A stretch of DNA of 12,583 nucleotides from a virus (lineage: Duplodnaviria > Heunggongvirae > Uroviricota > Caudoviricetes), in the IMG/VR virus record IMGVR_UViG_2562617113_000016. One strand, written 5' to 3'. The notes beneath the pieces are model-generated. The model saw only the letters and a program-made list of their open reading frames with translations. It was not told where the DNA came from and did no database searches. Position 1 is the stretch's first letter, and every line of letters begins with the position of its first letter. Made by a program: the position numbers and the translations under genes. Below are positions 1-12,583 of this stretch, one piece after another.

Positions 1-1371
1 TCAGGCTGTCGCAGGGTCGTCACATTTTGGCAGCCAGTCGCCGTAGCTTTCCTCTTTCAGCGTCAGGTTGGTCTGTATCCCCTGTTTGGTATGGCGCTTC
101 TCGTAATTCAGTCCGTATTCCTTCAGCATCACCGGCAGCCCCAGCCCGAACATTTTCAGACTGAGTACATTCCGGTAGCCGTTTGCCTCCATGTAGGCCA
201 GATAGGCGTGATAGAGGTATTTACGGTAATTACGCGGGATGATACTGGCGTTCCCCATATACATGCCGCTGGTCTGCGGCAGGGTTTCCAGATAGCCGAT
301 AAAATCAAACGTCGGGTCGGCATCCCGTTTGATGTTCAGTGCCTCGTCTGAGTTCTGCTGGGACTGAAGCAGTGACCGGGCGAGCATCGGGTCGCTGAAC
401 TTCTGCATCAGGTGACGCACGATGACCGCCAGCTCGCGGGTGATTTTGTCCTTAAGCTGCGGGTCGCGCTCCTGCGGGGCTATCTGTTCCGGGAAGTGAA
501 TAATCACCCGCCGGCGTGACACGCCGCCGCTGCGGTCGGTGAAGCGCATCGGGTTATTGTTCACGGCCAGAATCACCGCCGGGATATGCGTGGAGTACGC
601 ATCCCGGTATTTCGGGTCCACGGACACCGCATCGCCGCCGGTGATGGCCTTGAGTCCGGCACCGTCGCCGCTCCATTTTTCCTGGTCCGGCAGGCGTATC
701 AGTGAGAAGCCAGTTAACGCGGCACGTTCACGCGGGGATTCCAGCGTCTCAATGGTGGCCGACGTGGCGTTATCCTCCCCGGCCAGCAGGGTGGCTATTT
801 CGGCCATGATACTTTTGCCGCTGCCGCCGGGACCGGTCACCTCCAGAAAGAGCTGCCAGTCGTAGCGGTTTGCCAGCACCATAAACAGTGCGGCCAGAAT
901 CACGTCGCGTTTTTCCGCACGGCCACCGGCGGCACGGTCAAGCCAGCGCCAGAACGCGGGGGCGTGGGTCTCCAGCGTTTCACCGTCCACCGGCGGGGTG
1001 AAATCCACATCGCACAGGGTGCGCATCCAGTGTAACGGACTGTGCGGGTGGAACGTGCCGTTCTGCGTGTCGAGCACGCCGTTACGAAAGCCAATCAGGC
1101 GGCGGGAGGGGGCTTCCTGCTGTGGAATAATCAGCTTCAGGGTGTCCACCACGGAGGCCACCTTCCCGGAGGAGAACGGCGCGCGCAGACGCTGAAACAG
1201 CCCGGCCACATCCCGGGCAAAGTCCTGTGGCGGCAGCACCTTCCAGACACCATTTTCATAGCGGGACAGAAGCTGGCCGTTGGCATCGACCGCGAGCGCC
1301 TCACCGTAATGCTCATAGATACGCATGGCCTTTTCGCTGGTACTCATGGCGGAAAACTCTGCTTCGCTCAT
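1..1371 (-). CDS. alpha: P4-type alpha protein, C-terminal helicase/origin-binding portion (ORF downstream of the frameshift)
   Basis: 456-aa ORF; translation matches the C-terminal two thirds of P4 alpha as I recall it, including a P-loop-like GPGGSGKS. Stop codon at 1-3. Open frame continues upstream of the ATG to about 1536. Confidence 0.85.
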   Translation of the reverse strand: MSEAEFSAMSTSEKAMRIYEHYGEALAVDANGQLLSRYENGVWKVLPPQDFARDVAGLFQRLRAPFSSGKVASVVDTLKLIIPQQEAPSRRLIGFRNGVLDTQNGTFHPHSPLHWMRTLCDVDFTPPVDGETLETHAPAFWRWLDRAAGGRAEKRDVILAALFMVLANRYDWQLFLEVTGPGGSGKSIMAEIATLLAGEDNATSATIETLESPRERAALTGFSLIRLPDQEKWSGDGAGLKAITGGDAVSVDPKYRDAYSTHIPAVILAVNNNPMRFTDRSGGVSRRRVIIHFPEQIAPQERDPQLKDKITRELAVIVRHLMQKFSDPMLARSLLQSQQNSDEALNIKRDADPTFDFIGYLETLPQTSGMYMGNASIIPRNYRKYLYHAYLAYMEANGYRNVLSLKMFGLGLPVMLKEYGLNYEKRHTKQGIQTNLTLKEESYGDWLPKCDDPATA

Positions 1372-2333
1372 GGTGTCGAACGGGCTTTCAGCCGGTGGCC
1401 GGATGGCATCGTAAATGGCCTTACGGGTGGCCTCCCCGCCGTACTGCGTGAAGGCATCATTCCAGTCACCGAAGACCGGCGGCAGGGCAACAACGCCCTC
1501 ACACGCATCTGCGGCTGCGGCAGCTTTTTCTGGCCGTCACCGCTGAGGTCACGGTCTGCGGCAAGGACAATCTGACAGGCCGGATGCTTCTGCCGGGCAA
1601 GGCTGGCCAGAGAAAGGAGGTTCACGGAAGAAAGCGCCACCATCACCGTTTCACCGGTCAGGTGATGCACGGTAAGTGCGGTCGCGTATCCCTCCGCTAT
1701 CCACAGACGTTTTCCGGCCTGATTCTGTCCTTCAAGGGTGTGACAGGTGCCCCTGACCTGTCCGCCTTTCAGGGTGCGCTTACGGCCGTCAGCACTGATT
1801 AACTGAAGGTTAACCAGTTCGCCGCTGTCGTCATACAGTGGCACCACAAGGTCACCGGCACGCCAGCTCACGCCACCGGCTCTGTGTGTGCCGGTCAGCA
1901 TCCGGCATTCCCGGCCGGGAAAGCCCTTGCGGGTCAGGTAGGCGTTACCGGTTCCGGGACGGGTTTTCGCCATCAGGGTTTGTGCCAGTGCGGCGGCGTT
2001 CTTCCGGGCAGCGTCTGTTTCAGCAACGGCGGCAGCCGTCACTGCCGGGTCAGCCGGTGGCAGGCTGCCGGTCACGGCAGCCACCTTTGCGGCCGCGTCG
2101 GACGGGGAAACACCAAACACCTTTTCAACCAGTTTCAGGCCGTCACCGGCACCACACTGATTGCAGTACCAGGTGCCGCGCCCCTCCCTGTCATCAAAAC
2201 GGAAGCGGTCACTCCCGCCACAGACCGGACAGGGCTGATGACGGTTTTTCAGCACCTGAATCCCCAGCGCCGGGAGAATACGCGGCCAGTGGCCGAGTGC
2301 ATGGCTGACGGTGGCGGTTACGTTCATTTTCAT
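1368..2333 (-). CDS. alpha: P4-type alpha protein, N-terminal primase portion (zinc-binding CxxC...CxxC plus primase core); last ~51 codons are out of frame
   Basis: 321-aa ORF starting MKMNVTATVSHALGHW with CPVCGG...CNQCG zinc motif. Good RBS (AGGAG) about 9 nt upstream of the ATG at 2331-2333. The tail after GDGQKK looks like frameshifted read-through ending at TGA overlapping the ATG of the downstream ORF. Confidence 0.85.
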   Translation of the reverse strand: MKMNVTATVSHALGHWPRILPALGIQVLKNRHQPCPVCGGSDRFRFDDREGRGTWYCNQCGAGDGLKLVEKVFGVSPSDAAAKVAAVTGSLPPADPAVTAAAVAETDAARKNAAALAQTLMAKTRPGTGNAYLTRKGFPGRECRMLTGTHRAGGVSWRAGDLVVPLYDDSGELVNLQLISADGRKRTLKGGQVRGTCHTLEGQNQAGKRLWIAEGYATALTVHHLTGETVMVALSSVNLLSLASLARQKHPACQIVLAADRDLSGDGQKKLPQPQMRVRALLPCRRSSVTGMMPSRSTAGRPPVRPFTMPSGHRLKARSTP

Positions 2334-2347
2334 GGTGTTGTTCTCCT

Positions 2348-2668
2348 TCAGTGCAGTACCGGCGCTTTTATGTGACGGGCACAGAGTTCATCCATCACAA
2401 CCAGCCCGAGAAAGGACAGCGACGGCGCGGCCTTCAGGGGGCCGGATTCCATTAAATCTTCCAGCAGGGCACAGGCTATCTGACGCCCTTTTTCCTCACC
2501 GTGCTGGCGCAGATAAAAGCCTTCCAGCTCAGCGGCGATGGCCGCCTCCAGTGACTCAAGGGTGAGATGCGGGTAGCGGTGCTGACGTTCGCACACGGTC
2601 AGCCAGGCACAGGCGACAGCGCGACGGTAAAGGGCAGCGCGTAAGACGGGCGGTAAGGGTGTTTTCAT
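2348..2668 (-). CDS. hypothetical protein, P4 left-operon orf106-like
   Basis: 106-aa ORF directly upstream of alpha; GGAGG RBS 7 nt upstream of the ATG at 2666-2668; same strand and tight spacing as the alpha operon. Confidence 0.6.
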
Positions 2669-2803
2669 TTGCTTTCCTCCCTGTGACAGATGACTGCATT
2701 CCGTGCCGGTTGCATTAACTGATAAGGCATATCTGCGTCTCCTGAAGACGTGCGTATCCCTGCGCGAATACGCACATTTAATTTTTCGGGTGTCGTTTTT
2801 TAA

Positions 2804-3259
2804 TTACAGATAATTGCGGTAACTGTTATCCGGGGTGGTTTCCGGGTCAGGCTCCGTGCGGGGAATTTCCCGCCATTCCCGCGCTACCGGTGCTGCCCGG
2901 CTGACCGGAACAGTGTCCTGCGGGTAAATATCCAGATATTTCTCCCGCCATTTCTGTAATTCCGGGTCTCCGGCCATTTCTTTCAGTACCGCATGCCGGT
3001 TTACGGGGCTGCGTTTAAACAGGTCAGGACGGTCACAGGTAAATTCCCGCAGAAAACGCCCCAGCGGGATGTCTGTGGTGCGCCCGTCGGCGAGGATACG
3101 CACAAGGATACTGAATTTACGGCGGTACGGATTCCAGACAATGTCCGGGCAGCGGTACGGCATTTCCCACGGAATACCGTCTTCCAGAATGCCGACCACG
3201 GCCACATCGGGAAAACCGGCAGAACGGTAAATCTCACCGGGCTGGGGAAAATCAAACAT
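2804..3259 (-). CDS. hypothetical protein, P4 left-operon orf151-like
   Basis: 151-aa ORF; start overlaps the stop of the upstream ORF by 8 nt (translational coupling). Confidence 0.6.
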   Translation of the reverse strand: MFDFPQPGEIYRSAGFPDVAVVGILEDGIPWEMPYRCPDIVWNPYRRKFSILVRILADGRTTDIPLGRFLREFTCDRPDLFKRSPVNRHAVLKEMAGDPELQKWREKYLDIYPQDTVPVSRAAPVAREWREIPRTEPDPETTPDNSYRNYL

Positions 3260-3539
3260 GCGTCCTGTCTCCCCGGTCTTTCTGCTGGGCGAGAAAATCG
3301 CGGCACAGGCCTTTGGCTTTCAGCTCATTCAGCACAAAATCAATATCTTCATTCAGGTAGCTGAAAATATGCGGAATGTAGAGCTGATGCAGGCCGGAGA
3401 GTTCACGGTGAATCAAATCACCCCCAACAAACTGGGATACGGCGCTGGCGCGGTTGAGCTTATGGTAAGCCTCAATGCTGAGGTGTTCACGGGCGTCATG
3501 ACGCGCTGAGACGGTCTGAGGGGCTTTTTTATTACGCAT
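3252..3539 (-). CDS. small 95-aa protein, candidate P4 epsilon-like (helper derepression) protein
   Basis: Internal ATG at 3537-3539 of the longer track ORF 3252..3779, preceded by a strong SD (GGAGGTG, about 5 nt spacing). The upstream 80 codons of the track ORF look non-protein-like. Size and position match epsilon in P4; identity by recall only. Confidence 0.45.
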
Positions 3540-3729
3540 GAGACACCTCCACCACCGGCAGACGGGCAGCAAGGGAGAGCACATAGTCACGGACAAGGGA
3601 ACGGCGGGCGCTGCGTTCATCACCGGCGACGGTGCGAAGCATACAGATACGGGGATGACGGTCTGCGCGACGGACAGCCGCAAACACAAAGACAAATTCA
3701 GGGTGTGAGGGGGTAAGGGTCGTAGCCAT
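3532..3729 (-). CDS. small 65-aa protein, first gene after the immunity leader (kil-like position)
   Basis: ATG at 3727-3729 with strong SD GGAGGT and 6-nt spacer; lies in the frame of track ORF 3532..4167, whose N-terminal region I interpret as leader. Alternative starts at 3906 or 3936 have poor RBS. Confidence 0.4.
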
Positions 3730-3739
3730 AAGGCAACCT

Positions 3740-4046
3740 CCGATAACAGCGTAAATGACGCTATCGCCGGAGTTCTCACGCTCGATGGCGATAGCCCAGA
3801 CGGGGGTGAGAATACCGGCGTTATCGGAAACCGGCCAGCCCGGAGGCTGCCCCGCCTGAGCTACCATTGACTCAGTGGCATAACATGCGATTGCGAACAG
3901 GATCATACCTGCACGGCAAACCACACGCCACACCATAATCTGGTGCTCTGTGGCGTTGATTGCGACACAAAAAAAGACGCATGGCGCGTCATATGTCGCC
4001 GATAACATACTCGGGTTCTCACGCCCGGCTGCCGATTTTGCGGCAG
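3740..4046 (-). ncRNA. candidate P4-type immunity leader (cI-RNA-like region with seqA/seqB/seqC-like complementary elements)
   Basis: Direct repeats GCGTGAGAAC (4015-4024 and 3772-3781, minus strand) and GTTATCGG (3999-4006 and 3740-3747), with a segment between them (3804-3827) complementary to both. The downstream copy overlaps the SD of the 65-aa ORF. Hairpin plus T7 run at 3969-3990. Confidence 0.35.
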
Positions 4047-4083
4047 CGGAAAAACTATATCCGCAAATGCCGGAAAAAGGCAA
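4047..4083 (-). promoter_or_regulatory. candidate sigma70 promoter (PLE-like) for the left operon
   Basis: Minus strand TTGCCT (4078-4083), 18-bp spacer, TATAGT (4054-4059), immediately downstream of the vis-like gene. Confidence 0.4.
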
Positions 4084-4118
4084 GCCAGAAAAAGGGAGTT
4101 TTTGCAGAGCGGGCATCA

Positions 4119-4385
4119 TCATGCGTCGTACCCCCGTTTGCGTCCGGCAATGCGTCCGGCCATCCATGCGGTGACTTCAGAGTGCAGCCAGGCCACATTT
4201 TTACCGCCAAGACTCACCTGCGGCGGAAATTCCCCCTTACGGATGAGTTCATAGATGGTCGAGCGTGACAGGCCGCACAGGTGCATCACTTCCGGCAGAC
4301 GTAAAAAACGCTCCTGCGTGATGTCCGGCAGCGGCATCAGTGGCGTCACAGGGGCGGGAGACGGGGAAGAAAAAACAGCTTGCAT
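4119..4385 (-). CDS. AlpA/Vis-family HTH DNA-binding protein (P4 orf88/vis-like regulator or excisionase)
   Basis: 88-aa ORF with the AlpA-family signature RLPEV...[17 protein letters not shown]...W..SEV; GAGGT RBS about 8 nt upstream of the ATG. Confidence 0.75.
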
Positions 4386-4439
4386 CGGGCTACCTCGTTA
4401 ATGTCCATACAGCACCGGATAAGTCCGTCCGGCTTCGGG

Positions 4440-4505
4440 TAGCGCTTTATTTTGTGAATATTTTTGGCAGACGCAACAGGGGGGATTTGTTCCGGCAGCC
4501 TTACA
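4440..4505 (-). promoter_or_regulatory. candidate Delta/Ogr-activated late promoter (PLL-like) driving the vis-like gene
   Basis: TGT-N12-ACA dyad at 4488-4505 (TGTtccggcagccttACA); a start about 55 bp downstream on the minus strand would fall near 4441. Confidence 0.45.
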
Positions 4506-4530
4506 ATGACTGTGTGTTTTTTGTTCATTC

Positions 4531-4560
4531 CCACTTAAAGTCATTTAAAGCCACTTAAAG
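4531..4560. repeat. three tandem 10-bp repeats (C/T)CA(C/T)TTAAAG
   Basis: CCACTTAAAG TCATTTAAAG CCACTTAAAG, helically phased, between the PLL-like dyad and the iteron cluster. Confidence 0.6.
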
Positions 4561-4664
4561 CAATTCGTAATTTTTATAGTGAAATACAAATCGTTTCTTC
4601 TTATTCATTCACAGCGAATTAATAAAAACAAACAGTAGTAAACAGCACAAAAAGTCCATGAGCG

Positions 4665-4768
4665 GGTGAACAGTGGTGAACAGACGGTGAACAGTCATTA
4701 CTGCGATTGTTCACCCTTTAACTTACTGTATTACTTATCTTTTTTTTATGGTGAACAGAGGTGAACAG
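4665..4768. repeat. iteron cluster of P4 type I (TGTTCACC / GGTGAACA) alpha-binding repeats; candidate ori
   Basis: GGTGAACAG at 4665-4673, 4675-4683, 4686-4694, 4750-4758 and 4760-4768, plus an inverted copy TGTTCACC at 4708-4715; 10-11 bp spacing; flanked by A-rich tracts. Confidence 0.6.
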
Positions 4769-4849
4769 TAAAATATAAAAAAAAACAAACAGTAAGCCGG
4801 TTTTTCCTGCGACCTTTTCCTGGCTTGCCGGTCTGAGGATGAGTCTCCT

Positions 4850-4915
4850 GTGTCAGGACTGGCACATCTGCAATGCGTCGTGTTGTTGTCCGGTGTACGT
4901 CACAATTTTCTTAAT
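4850..4915 (+). promoter_or_regulatory. candidate Delta/Ogr-activated late promoter (Psid-like)
   Basis: TGT-N12-ACA dyad at 4850-4867 (TGTgtcaggactggcACA), about 55 bp upstream of a plausible start near 4913; sid ATG at 4939. Confidence 0.5.
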
Positions 4916-4938
4916 CTGAAGTGACGAGGAGCCGGAAA

Positions 4939-5673
4939 ATGTCTGACAACACCATCCCTGAATATCTGCAACCCGCACTGGCACAACTGGAAAAGGCCAG
5001 AGCCGCCCATCTTGAGAACGCCCGACTGATGGATGAGACCGTCAAGGCCATTGAACGGGCAGAGCAGGAAAAAAATGCGCTGGCGCAGGCCGACGGAAAT
5101 GACGCTGATGACTGGCGCACAGCCTTTCGTGCAGCCGGTGGTGTCCTGAGCGACGAGCTGAAACAGCGCCACATTGAGCGCGTGGCACGCCGGGAGCTGG
5201 TACAGGAATATGACAATCTGGCCGTGGTGCTGAATTTTGAACGTGAACGCCTGAAAGGGGCGTGTGACAGCACGGCCACCGCCTACCGGAAGGCACATCA
5301 TCACCTGCTGAGTCTGTATGCAGAGCATGAGCTGGAACACGCCCTGAATGAAACCTGTGAGGCGCTTGTCCGGGCAATGCATCTGAGCATTCTGGTACAG
5401 GAAAATCCGCTCGCCAACACCACCGGCCATCAGGGCTACGTCGCACCGGAAAAGGCTGTCATGCAGCAGGTGAAATCATCGCTGGAACAGAAAATAAAAC
5501 AGATGCAAATCAGCCTCACCGGTGAGCCGGTTCTCCGGCTGACCGGACTGTCAGCGGCAACACTCCCGCACATGGATTATGAGGTGGCAGGCACACCGGC
5601 ACAGCGCAAGGTGTGGCAGGACAAAATAGACCAGCAGGGAGCAGAGCTTAAGGCCAGAGGACTGCTGTCATGA
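4939..5673 (+). CDS. sid: Sid, capsid size determination (external scaffold) protein
   Basis: 244 aa from ATG 4939 (MSDNTIPEYLQ...) with GAGGAG RBS. The track ORF starts at an upstream GTG (4921). Size and gene order sid-delta-psu match P4. Confidence 0.85.
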   Translation: MSDNTIPEYLQPALAQLEKARAAHLENARLMDETVKAIERAEQEKNALAQADGNDADDWRTAFRAAGGVLSDELKQRHIERVARRELVQEYDNLAVVLNFERERLKGACDSTATAYRKAHHHLLSLYAEHELEHALNETCEALVRAMHLSILVQENPLANTTGHQGYVAPEKAVMQQVKSSLEQKIKQMQISLTGEPVLRLTGLSAATLPHMDYEVAGTPAQRKVWQDKIDQQGAELKARGLLS

Positions 5674-6170
5674 TTTACTGCCCGTCGTGTGGACATGTTG
5701 CTCACACCCGTCGCGCACATTTCATGGACGATGGCACCAAGATAATGATTGCACAGTGCCGGAATATTTATTGCTCTGCGACATTTGAAGCGAGTGAAAG
5801 CTTTTTCTCTGACAGTAAAGATTCAGGAATGGAATACATTTCAGGCAAACAGAGATACCGCGATTCACTGACGTCAGCCTCCGGCAGTATGAAACGCCCG
5901 AAAAGAATGCTTGTTACCGGATATTGTTGTCGGAGATGTAAAGGCCTTGCACTGTCAAGAACATCGCGGCGTCTGTCTCAGGAAGTCACCGAGCGTTTTT
6001 ATGTGTGCACGGATCCGGGCTGTGGTCTGGTGTTTAAAACGCTTCAGACCATCAACCGTTTCATTGTCCGCCCGGTCACGCCGGACGAACTGGCAGAAAG
6101 CCTGCATGAAAAACAGGAACTGCCGCCAGTACGCTTAAAAACACAATCATATTCGCTGCGTCTGGAATGA
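5670..6170 (+). CDS. delta: Delta, Ogr-family zinc-finger late transcription activator (tandem Ogr-like domains)
   Basis: 166 aa; two Cys4 clusters (CPSCG...C..IYC and CCRRC...C.DPGC); ATGA overlap with the sid stop. Confidence 0.85.
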   Translation: MIYCPSCGHVAHTRRAHFMDDGTKIMIAQCRNIYCSATFEASESFFSDSKDSGMEYISGKQRYRDSLTSASGSMKRPKRMLVTGYCCRRCKGLALSRTSRRLSQEVTERFYVCTDPGCGLVFKTLQTINRFIVRPVTPDELAESLHEKQELPPVRLKTQSYSLRLE

Positions 6171-6243
6171 GGGCTGCCGGTTAACACCGGCCGTCGCCGC
6201 ACACCGTATTTTTATTCTTCAGCATGATGAGAAAGAGATAACG

Positions 6244-6816
6244 ATGGAAAGCACAGCCTTACAGCAGGCCTTTGACACCTGTCAGAATAACAAAGCAGCA
6301 TGGCTGCAACGCAAAAATGAGCTGGCAGCGGCCGAACAGGAATATCTGCGGCTTCTGTCAGGAGAAGGCAGAAACGTCAGTCGCCTGGACGAATTACGCA
6401 ATATTATCGAAGTCAGAAAATGGCAGGTGAATCAGGCCGCTGGTCGTTATATTCGTTCGCATGAAGTCGTTCAGCACATCAGCATCCGCGACCGGCTGAA
6501 TGATTTTATGCAGCAGCACGGCACAGCACTGGCGGCGGCACTGGCACCGGAGCTGATGGGCTACAGTGAGCTGACGGCCATTGCCCGAAACTGTGCCATA
6601 CAGCGTGCCACAGATGCCCTGCGTGAAGCCCTTCTGTCCTGGCTTGCGAAGGGTGAAAAAATTAATTATTCCGTACAGGATAGCGACATTTTAACGGCCA
6701 TCGGATTCAGGCCTGACGCGGCTTCGGTGGATGACAGCCGTGAAAAATTCACCCCTGCGCAGAACATGATTTTTTCGCGTAAAAGTGCGCAACTGGCATC
6801 ACGTCAGTCTGTGTAA
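6244..6816 (+). CDS. psu: Psu, polarity suppression / capsid decoration protein
   Basis: 190-aa ORF following delta; size and position as in P4. Confidence 0.85.
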   Translation: MESTALQQAFDTCQNNKAAWLQRKNELAAAEQEYLRLLSGEGRNVSRLDELRNIIEVRKWQVNQAAGRYIRSHEVVQHISIRDRLNDFMQQHGTALAAALAPELMGYSELTAIARNCAIQRATDALREALLSWLAKGEKINYSVQDSDILTAIGFRPDAASVDDSREKFTPAQNMIFSRKSAQLASRQSV

Positions 6817-6851
6817 AATTCCCCGAAAATCCGCCCGTTTTTACTGAAAAA

Positions 6852-6880
6852 AGCCATGCATCGATAAGGTGCATGGCTTT
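6852..6880 (+). terminator. candidate intrinsic terminator after psu
   Basis: 9-bp stem AGCCATGCA / TGCATGGCT with 9-nt loop, followed by TTTGCATGCGTTT. Confidence 0.45.
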
Positions 6881-6980
6881 GCATGCGTTTCCCTGCCTCA
6901 TTTTCTGCAAACCGCGCCATTCCCGGCGCGGTCTGAGCGTGTCAGTGCAACTGCATTAAAACCGCCCCGCAAAGCGGGCG

Positions 6981-6999
6981 GGCGAGGCGGGGAAAGCAC
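6981..6999. other. cos: P2/P4 cos site (19-nt cohesive-end sequence)
   Basis: GGCGAGGCGGGGAAAGCAC matches the P2/P4 cohesive-end sequence as I recall it; sits in a GC-rich dyad context just downstream of psu, as in P4. Confidence 0.75.
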
Positions 7000-7170
7000 T
7001 GCGCGCTTACTTAGATGCGTGAATTTATTTATATCACTGAAGTATATCCCTAAGCTCATTTCTCAAAGGGCCTATGGTTGCACAAGGTTGTACCATGGCA
7101 TTCAAAACTTTTTAAACCAAGAATGACAATTTCATTATTAGGCCGGAATAGTTACTAATTTTAGTATAGG

Positions 7171-7199
7171 TTGCGATTGTTTAACGCATTTTTTATTAT
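7171..7199 (+). promoter_or_regulatory. candidate sigma70 promoter for the first cargo gene
   Basis: TTGCGA (7171-7176), 17-bp spacer, TATTAT (7194-7199) in AT-rich DNA upstream of the 434-aa ORF; several alternative hexamers exist nearby. Confidence 0.3.
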
Positions 7200-7241
7200 G
7201 ATGCAGATTTTATTATTACTAATGGGGTGCAAAAAACACGT

Positions 7242-8531
7242 ATGAAAAAAAATGTTGGTAACCGCAATAAAAATTCTGATGTGCTTATTCTTAAAGGTAT
7301 GTTGAACAATTTAAAAGATGGTTTAAATAATTTTGAATTATTGCTTAAATTGCAGTTTAAAATATTGGTGTGCGTGATGAGATGTGAGCGGAAAATTAAG
7401 TTTCTTAAAAAGAATAATGCTCATTTAAGGTCGGTGTTAAAAAAATCAAGACTTCCAAAAGAAAAATCTCTGGCAGTAAAAGAAAAAATTAAATACAATT
7501 CTGAAGTAATTACTGCTGAAAAATTCAAGATATATACGTATAAAATGTTTGGCGATGCTGTTGCATTTTTATACATCGATAAATATACAATTAAACAGTT
7601 ATACTACAATGTACATAATTACAATGTTAAAGAAACGTCGGGGGATTTGAGCGGTAAGTCTGGATTGCGAGAGGAATGGGAATGCGTAAAACTTGCATGT
7701 GATAATAAAGTTCCAGCTCTGTTGCATGATATTACAATGAGTATAAGGCATGGAGATGTATCACTTTTAGGTAAAGATGAGCCATTTATTATTGAGATGA
7801 AATCAAGCTCAAATACAAATAAGAGAGTTGAGCGGCAAAAATCTAACCTTGAAAAATTAGGAAGTTTCATAGCAAAAGACGAAGCTGAAAATTTTCGAGG
7901 GATTCCATTGTTAATCAGGAAAAATTTGTTAACTGAAGAGGAATCATATTCTCAGGTTTTAAATGAGTGTCTTAATGATTGTCGCAGCAAAGGAATGGCT
8001 TTGGTTGAAGCTGAAAAAGGATTTTATATCTGCGCAGTTAGAGAAGGGAATATGGCTTCTATGCTAGAAAATATAGATTTTGATGAAAAAAAAGAAGTTT
8101 TTCCTGTATTTCTCAATCAATATAAAAATAATGGGGAATGGCTACCATTAACACCATTTACACTATTAATTAACGATCCTTACGATCTCCATGATTTTAT
8201 CGAAGGGGAATTAACAATAGCTTGTTTTTTAATGCTCGATGAATACAAAAAAATTGCTATAGAACTAGGCTATGAATTAGTTTTTGTTTCAAATGATGAA
8301 TATAGTATCTTGTTAAAAAGAATTGGTGAAGATATTATATTTGGTGTTTCCTGGCAAATGTTGTTAAGAGTTCCATTAGAGATGATGTCCATGTCATGGT
8401 TGATAAAAGAAAGTATTAATATATATAGTAACTCCCTAGAAAATAGCACCCATAATGATGAATTAAATCAGGGGCAGGGAAATACTAAAAATTCATTATT
8501 CGAAAAATACAAGAATTTATTTTCTTACTAA
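7242..8531 (+). CDS. cargo protein A, unknown function, putative PD-(D/E)xK-fold nuclease
   Basis: 1.3-kb ORF in AT-rich DNA, where random ORFs of this length are improbable. First ATG at 7242; track start is GTG at 7227. Motif ...PALLHD(168)...FIIE(190)MK(192) fits the hhhD...hhhExK pattern. No strong RBS seen. Confidence 0.8.
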   Translation: MKKNVGNRNKNSDVLILKGMLNNLKDGLNNFELLLKLQFKILVCVMRCERKIKFLKKNNAHLRSVLKKSRLPKEKSLAVKEKIKYNSEVITAEKFKIYTYKMFGDAVAFLYIDKYTIKQLYYNVHNYNVKETSGDLSGKSGLREEWECVKLACDNKVPALLHDITMSIRHGDVSLLGKDEPFIIEMKSSSNTNKRVERQKSNLEKLGSFIAKDEAENFRGIPLLIRKNLLTEEESYSQVLNECLNDCRSKGMALVEAEKGFYICAVREGNMASMLENIDFDEKKEVFPVFLNQYKNNGEWLPLTPFTLLINDPYDLHDFIEGELTIACFLMLDEYKKIAIELGYELVFVSNDEYSILLKRIGEDIIFGVSWQMLLRVPLEMMSMSWLIKESINIYSNSLENSTHNDELNQGQGNTKNSLFEKYKNLFSY

Positions 8532-8563
8532 TTAAGCATTGTAATTATATTTGATTTTTTCTA

Positions 8564-8597
8564 CAGGCTTGGACGGAATCATATAGCTCCAAGCCTG
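8564..8597. terminator. hairpin between the convergent cargo genes (candidate terminator, mainly for gene A)
   Basis: Perfect 10-bp stem CAGGCTTGGA / TCCAAGCCTG with 14-nt loop; followed by TGTTGTGTC on the plus strand; a T-run precedes it. Confidence 0.5.
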
Positions 8598-8632
8598 TTG
8601 TGTCGGTATCAAAAAGAAAGTGATATTATTGT

Positions 8633-10006
8633 TTATCTAATATATTTTGTTACTTCCATATTATCTTCATCGTCAAAAGAGTACTCAACCATCATACGAC
8701 TATTTTTACCTGACTTAATATCTTGAAGCCAAGCTGAGGCAACCCTAGGGTCTAAATGCTGTTTTCTACTCAGCTCATTATTTTTTAGCCTATCAAGCCT
8801 TATTGCTCTTTGAAGAGTTTTATCGATGTAGTCTTCCAAATCAATGGACAACCTCCTTTTTGGATATAAATATTGGTATTCATCACACAATAGTACTCCT
8901 GGTAATTTAATTTCGCGTAGGTCGAAAGAATACCAACTATAGTTTTTAGACTCATTAGCTAATTCCGAAACTAGATGAGCCCCATTTTGTTGTAAGAGAG
9001 ATATTTTGTGATCGATGCTAATGTCAGATATTTCTCTTAAAGACTCAAAATGCATGTTTTCGTAGATAGTATTTAATAAAATACTCTCCATGTAAGAGTA
9101 AAAATCAGTACCATCGATGATAATATTAGTTTCATTGTAGACTGCAAGAGACATAAGATATATGAAGAAAACTGCGGGAGTACTATTACCTCTGTTTATA
9201 TCAAGTCTAAGGGAGTTGACATAATCAGGCGGAGAGTTTGAGAAAATTTCTCTTATTAACCAGTCTGGAATAGTGGTTCTTGTTAGAATGTCAGCGTTCA
9301 AACTTGAACGACATAAAAAAATACACATCTTTAATTTTAATTTTATTGAAAATGATGGGAATAAATGATCGATGAAAGATAAAATACATGTATACTCTGC
9401 TAAGTCTGTTTGTTGCAACTTTTCTTTTATTTCATTTTCAAGCATTTTTAATTTAAAAAAATCATTCCTTTTTTCTAATATTTCCCAATGAAATAATTGC
9501 TCCTGAGCGTACGCATGCCCCTCTAAAATAGCTAGCATGCTTAAAGGAATGTTTAGGATTTCTTGATAATTATTAACATACCCAAAGAAATGGACTCTGA
9601 TATACACACCCATATCGTCATCATATTGTAATGATGCTTTAATATTTTTATAATTTAATTTATTAGTGCTGTTGTTTTTGAAGTGATAATGTAAAGTAAT
9701 TTCAGTATCATCAACTAATAAATTATCAAAAGCCTCCTTTGTTTCATATTTAAAATAGTTATATAGCCGACATGAATAATTTAACCCCCAGTGAGTTGTA
9801 GAACAATCAAGTAAATGGATTGTTTCATGGAGATATGTTTTATAAAATTCAATTTCGCTATCATCAAAATCATATATGCTTTTACTGTCTATGATATTTT
9901 GTGCTTGCGGTAAACTTATATTTAATTCATCGTTTGAAATCTCAATTAAATGTGATGAAAAATCATAAGAACCCAATGTTTTGCTGTTAAATATACATCC
10001 GCTCAT
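8633..10006 (-). CDS. cargo protein B, unknown function, putative zincin-like metallopeptidase (HEXXH)
   Basis: 457-aa ORF in AT-rich DNA. HETIH at residues 60-64 (DNA 9815-9829) in the context YKTYLHETIHLLD. Start ATG overlaps the integrase stop (ATGA) with AGGGGA RBS 6 nt upstream. Confidence 0.8.
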   Translation of the reverse strand: MSGCIFNSKTLGSYDFSSHLIEISNDELNISLPQAQNIIDSKSIYDFDDSEIEFYKTYLHETIHLLDCSTTHWGLNYSCRLYNYFKYETKEAFDNLLVDDTEITLHYHFKNNSTNKLNYKNIKASLQYDDDMGVYIRVHFFGYVNNYQEILNIPLSMLAILEGHAYAQEQLFHWEILEKRNDFFKLKMLENEIKEKLQQTDLAEYTCILSFIDHLFPSFSIKLKLKMCIFLCRSSLNADILTRTTIPDWLIREIFSNSPPDYVNSLRLDINRGNSTPAVFFIYLMSLAVYNETNIIIDGTDFYSYMESILLNTIYENMHFESLREISDISIDHKISLLQQNGAHLVSELANESKNYSWYSFDLREIKLPGVLLCDEYQYLYPKRRLSIDLEDYIDKTLQRAIRLDRLKNNELSRKQHLDPRVASAWLQDIKSGKNSRMMVEYSFDDEDNMEVTKYIR

Positions 10007-10278
10007 AGCAAATCCCCTAAAAGATAATCAGAGTACCATTGAATCATCGTTTTCCTTTGAGAAAAATATTGTGCGTGATTATAGGTTCCTCGGATATTGT
10101 TCTTATCAACATGTGCTAATTGCATTTCAATCCAGGTACTATCAAATCCCTGTTCATGTAGGATTGTTGACATTGTATGTCTAAAACCGTGACCTGTAGC
10201 ACGTCCTTTGTAACCAAGTAACTCAATCACTTGTGAAACACTTTCTTTTGAAATTGGTTTGCTACGTAACCGGCTCAT
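10003..10278 (-). pseudogene. int: tyrosine recombinase (P4-type integrase), C-terminal remnant only
   Basis: 91-aa ORF with catalytic-domain signature GHGFRHT...LAHVDKNNIRGTYNHA (R-H-R-Y region). The upstream in-frame codon is a stop and no integrase-like sequence is found further upstream; IS DNA begins there. Confidence 0.8.
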
Positions 10279-10318
10279 TTAAACCGTCTGGTCTGTTTCC
10301 TCCGGCTCTACAAAAATA

Positions 10319-10996
10319 ATGTCCATCATTTTTAATGGACACTATCGTATGAAACACCGGACCTGGATCACTGAAGCTTTACGTCTTCACTTTGAAGAAC
10401 ATTTACCCCGGGTTGTGGCCGGGCGTCGCCTGGGTGTACCAAAATCAACAGTTTGTAGTATGTTCGTGCGCTTTCGGAGAGCTGGCCTTTCGTGGCCTTT
10501 GCCCGCAGGCATGTCGGAGCAGGAACTTGATGCCTGCCTTTACGGACAATTTTCCACGGTACCAGTCGTACGTCCTGAAAGCACCGTTATATCCGAAGCC
10601 CCCGTGGTAAAAAAACGTCCCCGGCGGCCCAACTTCCCTTATGAGTTTAAAATCGCCTTAGTGGAGCAGTCACTGCAGCCCGGAGCCTGTGTGGCGCAGA
10701 TCGCCCGGGAAAACGGAATCAACGATAACCTGCTCTTCAACTGGCGCCATCAATACCGGAAAGGTGGCCTGCTGCCTTCCGGAAAAAATATGCCGGCACT
10801 GCTTCCCGTGACGTTAACGCCGGAGCCGGATAATAAAATCCCGGCCCCCGCACAGGAACCAGAGCAGATAAATACACCGTCCGACAGTCTGTGTTGTGAG
10901 CTGGTTCTGCCGGCCGGAACTCTCAGGCTTAAAGGTAAACTGACGCCGGCGTTATTACAGACACTTATCCGCGAAATAAAAGGGAGCAGCCACTGA
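10319..10996 (+). CDS. tnpA: IS66-family TnpA (orf1) accessory protein with HTH; N-terminal extent uncertain
   Basis: 225-aa ORF. C-terminal part (KRPRRPNFPYEFKIALVEQSLQPGACVAQIARENGINDNLLFNWRHQYRKG) is a transposase HTH typical of IS66 orf1. N-terminal about 90 aa carries a second HTH (LRLHFEEHLPRVVAGRRLGVPKSTV...AGLSWPLP) that resembles IS21-family IstA N-termini from memory. Confidence 0.65.
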   Translation: MSIIFNGHYRMKHRTWITEALRLHFEEHLPRVVAGRRLGVPKSTVCSMFVRFRRAGLSWPLPAGMSEQELDACLYGQFSTVPVVRPESTVISEAPVVKKRPRRPNFPYEFKIALVEQSLQPGACVAQIARENGINDNLLFNWRHQYRKGGLLPSGKNMPALLPVTLTPEPDNKIPAPAQEPEQINTPSDSLCCELVLPAGTLRLKGKLTPALLQTLIREIKGSSH

Positions 10997-11343
10997 TGAT
11001 ATCTCTCCCTGCAGGTTCGCGTATCTGGCTGGTTGCAGGTATCACCGATATGCGAAATGGCTTTAACGGCCTGGCATCAAAAGTTCAGAACGTCCTGAAG
11101 GATGACCCGTTCTCCGGACACCTGTTCATCTTCCGCGGACGCCGGGGTGACCAGATAAAAGTGTTGTGGGCTGACAGTGACGGACTGTGCCTCTTCACCA
11201 AACGCCTGGAGCGGGGCCGCTTCGTCTGGCCAGTCACCCGTGACGGCAAGGTGCACCTTACTCCGGCTCAGTTATCCATGCTTCTTGAAGGTATCAACTG
11301 GAAGCACCCGAAACGAACGGAACGCGCTGGAATCCGCATATAA
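10996..11343 (+). CDS. tnpB: IS66-family TnpB (orf2)
   Basis: 115-aa ORF with ATGA overlap to tnpA; sequence (..GLCLFTKRLERGRFVWP..) matches IS66 Orf2-like proteins as recalled. Confidence 0.85.
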   Translation: MISLPAGSRIWLVAGITDMRNGFNGLASKVQNVLKDDPFSGHLFIFRGRRGDQIKVLWADSDGLCLFTKRLERGRFVWPVTRDGKVHLTPAQLSMLLEGINWKHPKRTERAGIRI

Positions 11344-11362
11344 CCCGTTGTAAAGTGAGGAT

Positions 11363-12583
11363 ATGGACACCTCACTTGCTCATGAGAACGCCCGCCTGCG
11401 GGCACTGTTGCAGACGCAACAGGACACCATCCGCCAGATGGCTGAATACAACCGCCTGCTCTCACAGCGGGTGGCGGCTTATGCTTCCGAAATCAACCGG
11501 CTGAAGGCGCTGGTTGCGAAACTGCAACGTATGCAGTTCGGTAAAAGCTCAGAAAAACTTCGTGCAAAAACCGAACGGCAGATACAGGAAGCACAGGAGC
11601 GAATCAGCGCACTTCAGGAAGAAATGGCGGAAACGCTGGGTGAGCAATATGACCCGGTACTGCCATCCGCCCTGCGCCAGTCTTCAGCCCGTAAACCGTT
11701 ACCGGCCTCACTTCCCCGTGAAACCCGGGTTATCCGGCCGGAAGAGGAATGCTGTCCTGCCTGTGGTGGTGAACTCAGTTCTCTGGGATGTGATGTGTCA
11801 GAGCAACTGGAGCTTATCAGCAGCGCCTTTAAGGTTATCGAAACACAACGTCCGAAACAGGCCTGTTGCCGGTGCGACCATATCGTGCAGGCACCAGTAC
11901 CTTCAAAACCCATTGCACGCAGTTATGCCGGAGCGGGGCTTCTGGCCCATGTTGTCACCGGGAAATATGCAGACCATCTGCCGTTATACCGCCAGTCAGA
12001 AATATACCGTCGTCAGGGAGTGGAGCTGAGCCGTGCCACACTGGGGCGCTGGACAGGTGCTGTTGCTGAACTGCTGGAGCCGCTGTATGACGTCCTGCGC
12101 CAGTATGTGCTGATGCCCGGTAAAGTCCATGCTGATGATATCCCCGTCCCGGTCCAGGAGCCGGGCAGCGGTAAAACCCGGACAGCCCGGCTGTGGGTCT
12201 ACGTCCGTGATGACCGTAACGCCGGTTCACAGATGCCCCCGGCGGTCTGGTTCGCGTACAGTCCGGACCGGAAAGGTATCCATCCACAAAATCACCTGGC
12301 CGGTTACAGCGGTGTGCTTCAGGCCGATGCTTACGGTGGTTACCGGGCGTTATACGAATCCGGCAGAATAACGGAAGCCGCGTGTATGGCTCATGCCCGG
12401 AGAAAAATCCACGATGTGCATGCAAGAGCGCCCACCTACATCACCACGGAAGCCCTGCAGCGTATCGGTGAACTGTATGCCATCGAGGCAGAGGTCCGGG
12501 GCTGTTCAGCAGAACAGCGTCTGGCGGCAAGAAAAGCCAGAGCCGCGCCACTGATGCAGTCACTGTATGACTGGATACAGCAA
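11363..12583 (+). CDS. tnpC: IS66-family transposase TnpC (orf3), 5' partial, runs off the window
   Basis: Translated by hand from ATG 11363: [29 protein letters not shown]..., with leucine-zipper-like N-terminus and CPACGG...CCRCDH zinc motif typical of IS66 transposases. Open to the window end, so absent from the ORF track. Confidence 0.85.

Follow-up and report, generated by a model that had tools for sequence, protein, structure and literature searches.

Results

Layout of the locus

We analyzed a 12,583-nucleotide stretch of viral DNA, IMG/VR record IMGVR_UViG_2562617113_000016 (referred to throughout as the window), which is a P4 satellite prophage whose integrase gene is interrupted by an insertion sequence (IS). 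Positions 1-6980 were 97.9% identical at the DNA level to positions 4636-11624 of P4 (NC_001609). This part starts at the alpha stop codon, spans orf106, orf151, epsilon, the cI region, vis, sid, delta and psu, and reaches the right cos end. Beyond cos the homology to P4 ends, and two AT-rich genes follow, then an integrase-like open reading frame (ORF) and GC-rich DNA of the IS66 family.

The integrase sequence in the window is a 3' remnant at 10003-10265 (minus strand), which comprises codons R305-L391 of 391 and the stop codon and includes H330, R333, H356 and Y366. These last 87 residues were identical to the intact integrase of an uninterrupted relative (locus L001) and 36% identical to residues 321-405 of P4 Int. 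The remnant is read as part of a chimeric 91-residue ORF (10003-10278, minus strand) that opens with MSRL, four codons read from the terminal repeat of the IS, and that has an in-frame TAA just upstream. The Pfam profile Phage_integrase matched this ORF with an E-value of 2.1e-10 over profile positions 101-170 of 172. An exact look-up found no gene product on record for the 91-residue ORF among 153 billion gene positions, so it is not a recognized gene, and we conclude that it is an accidental product of the insertion. The remaining positions, 10266-12583 (plus strand), hold the first 2,318 of the 2,699 bp of ISCro1, a member of the IS66 family, and the window ends inside its transposase gene tnpC.

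Comparison with a longer assembly and uninterrupted relatives

An exact look-up of the 457-residue protein encoded next to the integrase gave ten loci, each with 10-kb flanks. One of these, L006 (GCA_001953095.1, a 3.9-Mb contig), contained the whole window with 0 mismatches and two 1-bp homopolymer indels, and continued past the window end. The other nine loci carried the same satellite with an uninterrupted integrase of 391 residues. The sole differences between L006 and L001 were 2,699 bp and a second copy of GTAGCAAA, which occurs once in L001 and flanks the IS on both sides in L006. On this comparison the 8-bp target-site duplication is TTTGCTAC; its left copy occupies 10258-10265 of the window (no strand assigned), and the second copy is predicted at 12965-12972, beyond the window end.

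ISCro1 inserted after codon 307 of 391. The remnant in the window is 87 codons long, three of them duplicated by the target-site duplication. The upstream piece, outside the window, consists of M1-K307 followed by 8 IS-encoded residues and adjoins tRNA-Sec. Both the N-terminal fragment (307 residues) and the C-terminal fragment (87 residues) were identical to the intact 391-residue integrase.

Identity and boundaries of ISCro1

Three genes were recognized in the IS, all on the plus strand. The gene tnpA (10319-10996) encodes an IS66 accessory protein of 225 residues (NCBIfam IS66_access_TnpA, E 1.1e-88; Pfam HTH_Tnp_1), tnpB (10996-11343) an IS66 Orf2-like accessory protein of 115 residues (PF05717, E 4.7e-40), and tnpC (11363-12583) the first 407 of 523 codons of an IS66 DDE transposase (LZ_Tnp_IS66, zf-IS66 and DDE_Tnp_IS66, E 2e-75; NCBIfam transpos_IS66, E 8e-101). 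The Pfam and NCBIfam matches of all three proteins exceeded the curated cut-offs. All three genes were intact in L006, where tnpC reached its full length of 523 residues.

The left end of the IS at 10266 reads GTAACCGGCTC... and the far end is its inverted repeat, ...GAGTCGCTTAC. The terminal inverted repeat at the tnpA-proximal end, GTAACCGGCTCATTTAAACCGTCTGG (10266-10291, plus strand), agreed with the opposite end at 18 of its 26 positions. The imperfect repeats, GTAACCGGCTCATTTAAACCG... and GTAAGCGACTCGTCAGAACCG..., both begin with GTAA, the right end being read in L006, outside the window. The boundary at 10266 was set by direct comparison of four IS copies and of the interrupted with the intact alleles. 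The start points of megablast matches (query 850-859) were rejected as a guide to the left boundary; they were misleading, the listed matches reaching furthest by chance into T/G-rich flanks.

Full ISCro1 copies in L006, L011, L013 and L014 were each 2,699 bp long, and the three outside L006 lay in unrelated contexts, each with its own different 8-bp duplication. The IS part of the window was 99.5-99.9% identical to copies in RefSeq that carry the annotation 'IS66-like element ISCro1 family transposase', and such copies were present on chromosomes and plasmids in 2,395 of 5,426 complete E. coli genomes.

A first-pass annotation, made from the letters of the window, had described an IS66-family element of roughly 2.7 kb with a tnpC end about 340 bp beyond the window. 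The tnpA, tnpB and tnpC domains together with the near-identity to ISCro1 confirm the family, and both estimates were accurate: ISCro1 is exactly 2,699 bp long and, projected onto window coordinates, tnpC ends at 12934 (351 bp past the window) and the IS at 12964 (381 bp past). The same annotation held that this element had truncated a P4-type tyrosine recombinase, of which only the C-terminal 91 codons remained. The gene is indeed broken by the IS66-family element, and the assignment to P4-type recombinases agrees with the domain architecture of the intact allele and with its 38% identity to P4 Int. However, the gene is interrupted and not deleted, since codons 1-307 survive past the IS, and only 87 of the 91 codons in the window belong to the integrase. 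The integrase sequence had also been said to stop where GC-rich IS DNA begins; the shift in composition is real (GC content rises from 0.36 in the remnant to 0.555 in the IS part), but the boundary is at 10266 and not at the ATG of the ORF.

Extension of the sequence, which the first-pass annotation had proposed, located the right end of the IS with its 8-bp duplication TTTGCTAC, the 5' part of the integrase (codons 1-307) past the IS, and the tRNA attachment site, selC (tRNA-Sec). Neither of the two observations that it had named as contrary to its reading was made: the extended allele holds no intact integrase ORF, and the 91-residue ORF is no conserved stand-alone protein, being without a gene record while relatives with identical flanks carry the uninterrupted 391-residue gene.

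Division of the integrase active site

The intact 391-residue allele contains an arm-DNA-binding domain (PF13356, DUF4102), a central domain (PF22022) and a catalytic domain (PF00589), and was 38% identical to P4 Int over its full length (E 1e-95). The motif positions TGVR241, H330GFR333, H356 and Y366 aligned with P4 Int. In the uninterrupted relatives the R...HxxR...H...Y set is complete on one polypeptide. In the interrupted allele it is divided, with Arg241 on the N-terminal fragment and H330, R333, H356 and Y366 on the C-terminal fragment. With the active site split in this way, neither piece is predicted to be able to catalyse recombination. Profile searches and comparison with P4 revealed no further recombinase domain among the proteins of the window.

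Attachment site and frequency of the interrupted allele

The tRNA-Sec gene selC adjoins the 5' end of the integrase, beyond the window. The attachment (att) core of 25 bp (GACTCCTGTGATCTTCCGCCAAAAT) was found at the 3' end of selC and again 296 bp past the alpha stop codon, both copies lying outside the window. This places the satellite at the 3' end of a tRNA gene, with the core duplicated as a 25-bp direct repeat at its two ends. The att-to-att length was 11,655 bp in the intact relatives and 11,624 bp in P4, and 14,362 bp with the IS (23% longer).

Among the complete E. coli genomes the hotspot cargo occurred in 10, and each of these matched 6800-10257 at full length, with an uninterrupted integrase gene annotated there; the IS was in none of them. 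The exact intact integrase was present on at least 1,000 contigs. The chimeric 315-residue N-terminal product was found on 2 contigs, and the sole name attached to it was 'integrase [Escherichia coli O157:H43 str. T22]'. This rarity of the interrupted allele points to an insertion that is recent and confined to one lineage. The event is ordinary, a hit by a very common IS on an element of a type that is itself very common, and known biology already explains it.

selC is a classical site for LEE, the enterocyte effacement locus. In L006 selC (5866-5960 of that locus, outside the window) is occupied by the satellite, in an assembly that shares the chimeric integrase fragment of T22. This occupancy sits at odds with the T22 genome announcement, according to which all known integration sites of LEE and of Shiga toxin (Stx) phages are intact (PMC3668004).

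Retained P4 functions and other sequence differences

The 19-nucleotide cohesive-end sequence of P2/P4, cos, was matched exactly at 6981-6999 (plus strand, 0 mismatches), as in P4-like satellites, which have a cos of this type; in the shuffled control any match to the 19-mer appeared in only 1 of 200 shuffles. On its left, 6901-6980 showed 100% identity with the final 80 bp of P4; the sequence at 6981-7006 agreed with P4 1-26 at 25 of 26 positions. The genes sid, delta and psu were intact, with 98-99% protein identity to P4, so that the initial description of both cos and the sid-delta-psu block as intact holds. The core set of a P4-like satellite consists of int, psu, delta, sid, alpA, epsilon and alpha (PMC8628076). 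All 7 were present, six of them at 98-99% protein identity to P4 and int in split form. The protein from the cI (immunity) ORF region (3535-3939) was 84% identical to P4, while every other shared gene was 98-100% identical, and this region may represent a different immunity type.

Both indels relative to L006 are in homopolymers. The first, at 1525-1529 in the alpha gene (1-2333, minus strand), is a stretch of 5 T, against 6 T in L006; it splits the 777-residue primase-helicase into ORFs of 321 and 456 residues in the window only, alpha being intact in the ten relatives and in P4. The frameshift is probably a homopolymer error, because Ion Torrent and 454 reads went into the presumed source draft (PMC3668004). 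The exact 321-residue product is, however, on record on 3 contigs. If the frameshift is real, the satellite would also be replication-defective. The second indel, 9 A at 4777-4785 where L006 has 8 A, falls in the AT-rich intergenic stretch that separates vis/alpA from sid and that corresponds to P4's ori region.

Damage at other places was seen in two relatives. In L005 an IS21-family element (istA, istB; 15539-17841) is inserted between sid and alpA, and in L003 (11476-12725, 16237-16434) the hotspot gene is split and the Phage_ASH gene is shortened. The L005 and L003 copies are damaged independently, so IS insertion and frameshift recur at different sites as causes of decay in this satellite.

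Hotspot cargo next to the integrase

The two AT-rich genes (GC 0.31) occupy the psu-int position, a defence hotspot described by Rousset et al. (PMC9122126). The first encodes 434 residues (7227-8531, plus strand) and is convergent with the second, which encodes 457 residues (8633-10006, minus strand) and lies directly downstream of the integrase on the same strand. The ATG of the 457-residue gene overlaps the integrase stop codon as ATGA at 10003-10006, which suggests co-transcription and translational coupling of this gene with the integrase in intact elements. PADLOC, Pfam, NCBIfam and PDB sequence searches gave no match for either protein. The sole match of the 434-residue protein was PHROG 14906, to which no function is assigned. 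By eye, an HETIH motif (HExxH-like) stands at residue 60 of the 457-residue protein and a D...EMK stretch near residues 177-192 of the 434-residue protein. The exact 457-residue protein was found on about 900 contigs, with relatives in Klebsiella and Salmonella. We regard the two genes as a candidate uncharacterized defence pair.

Given the overlap of its start codon with the integrase stop codon on one strand, the 457-residue gene may, speculatively, be separated by the IS from the promoter of the integrase, with altered expression of the cargo. The genes of the IS itself have the opposite orientation. A promoter consensus scan of 6800-10450 returned 23 sites where 17.0 ± 3.9 were expected, and no promoter-like site on the minus strand at 10006-10450; the scan therefore lends no support to an outward promoter from the IS end. 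At the afa locus, insertion of ISCro1 lowered downstream transcription (PMC8764528).

Discussion

We consider it very probable that a single transposition of ISCro1 into the integrase gene of a selC-integrated P4 satellite split the active site of the enzyme, in an allele seen only in a lineage named E. coli O157:H43 T22, and we infer from this a loss of excision and reintegration. The comparison of alleles shows directly that ISCro1 inserted, where its exact ends lie, how the motifs are divided and how rare the allele is. The one transposition produced the 8-bp target duplication after codon 307 and parted the arm-binding and core-binding domains and Arg241 from His330, Arg333, His356 and the nucleophile Tyr366. 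Still present are attL, attR, selC, the excisionase-like vis/alpA, cos and sid-delta-psu. The element thus looks complete yet is without the one enzyme for recombination between its att sites. In the P4 family, integration and excision are both the work of the integrase, and for excision P4 needs Vis as well (PMC7286903). Because the active site is split, it is a sound inference that the satellite could neither excise nor reintegrate by itself, that is, that it is fixed in place as the first-pass annotation had proposed. The immobility should hold unless an integrase is supplied in trans.

A second obstacle could lie in packaging. Given the limited capacity of the P4 capsid, an element of 14,362 bp might, even after excision, exceed what a P4-size head can take.

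Two points weigh against immobility: a second integrase of the same specificity could act in trans, and all three IS genes are intact in L006, so that the integrase gene might in principle be restored if the IS were lost. A satellite still mobile by one of these routes, that is, by another selC-specific integrase of the P4 family or by IS loss in a subpopulation, is unlikely in our judgement. Such mobility would find attL, attR, selC, vis/alpA, cos and the late genes all intact, and E. coli very commonly carries P4-like elements and integrases of the P4 family (PMC8628076; cluster sizes). On the other hand, a tyrosine integrase acts specifically on the att and arm sites that belong to it, the data showed no sign of precise IS loss, and the element remains at 14.36 kb for as long as the IS is present.

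We give little credence to the further idea that the insertion goes beyond decay and turns the psu-int module, with its two AT-rich genes, into an island fixed in the chromosome, where the ATG supplied by the IS would keep the short ORF coupled through ATGA to the 457-residue gene, so that this gene would be expressed after loss of the integrase promoter.

A misjoin at the junction of IS and integrase, induced by the repeat during short-read assembly, would fit a draft such as the presumed source, built from SOLiD, Ion Torrent and 454 reads in 64 contigs (PMC3668004), and the two homopolymer indels of the window relative to L006. A misjoin would create no duplication, however, and the second assembly, L006, has on its 3.9-Mb contig the complete IS between both integrase halves, with a perfect 8-bp duplication and exact 2,699-bp ends. 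We exclude an artefact because of this second assembly, and its probability is very slight. Equally improbable is a functional 91-residue stand-alone protein, or reassembly of the split halves into an active enzyme: an in-frame ATG does happen to come from the IS end, but the look-up across 153 billion gene positions gave no gene product for the ORF, the part derived from the integrase has exactly the nucleotide sequence with which full-length genes end at their 3' side, the ORF contains neither Arg241 nor any DNA-binding domain, and the consensus scan placed no promoter-like site upstream of it.

Interruption of the integrase by one ISCro1 transposition carries little weight beyond annotation. 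It illustrates that a complete-looking satellite, with cos, sid-delta-psu and both att sites, may be immobilized by a single IS hit, and pipelines that find integrases by keyword or by hidden Markov model would still score this satellite as complete or nearly so. It also offers a naturally occurring null allele of the integrase in a near-P4 element at selC, for which intact relatives that are isogenic exist. The interrupted and intact pair could be used to ask whether the hotspot cargo of a stranded satellite stays expressed and protective; a 2026 Nucleic Acids Research paper on P2/P4 defence hotspots raises the cargo question for defective elements (PMC13586616).

ISCro1 itself is known, having been first named in Citrobacter rodentium, and is widespread on E. 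coli chromosomes and plasmids. The element here has the same length, the same tnpA-tnpB-tnpC order, the same GTAA repeats and an 8-bp duplication, with no intrinsic difference; what is particular to this lineage is the insertion site only, at codon 305-307 of a satellite integrase. Where P4 carries its gop-beta-cII-int module, the satellite carries two AT-rich genes without assigned function and a different integrase, which at 391 residues and 38% identity to P4 Int targets selC, whereas P4 Int targets a tRNA-Leu gene. The ISCro1 interruption of the integrase is likewise a feature of this element and not of P4. A further comparison is with defective or domesticated prophages and with P4-like 'Type B' sets without one core component (Moura de Sousa & Rocha, PMC8628076). 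The satellite resembles these in having six intact core genes and one that is inactivated. However, the frequent pseudogene described in that work is alpA, through frameshifts, while here it is the integrase, through an IS and in one lineage.

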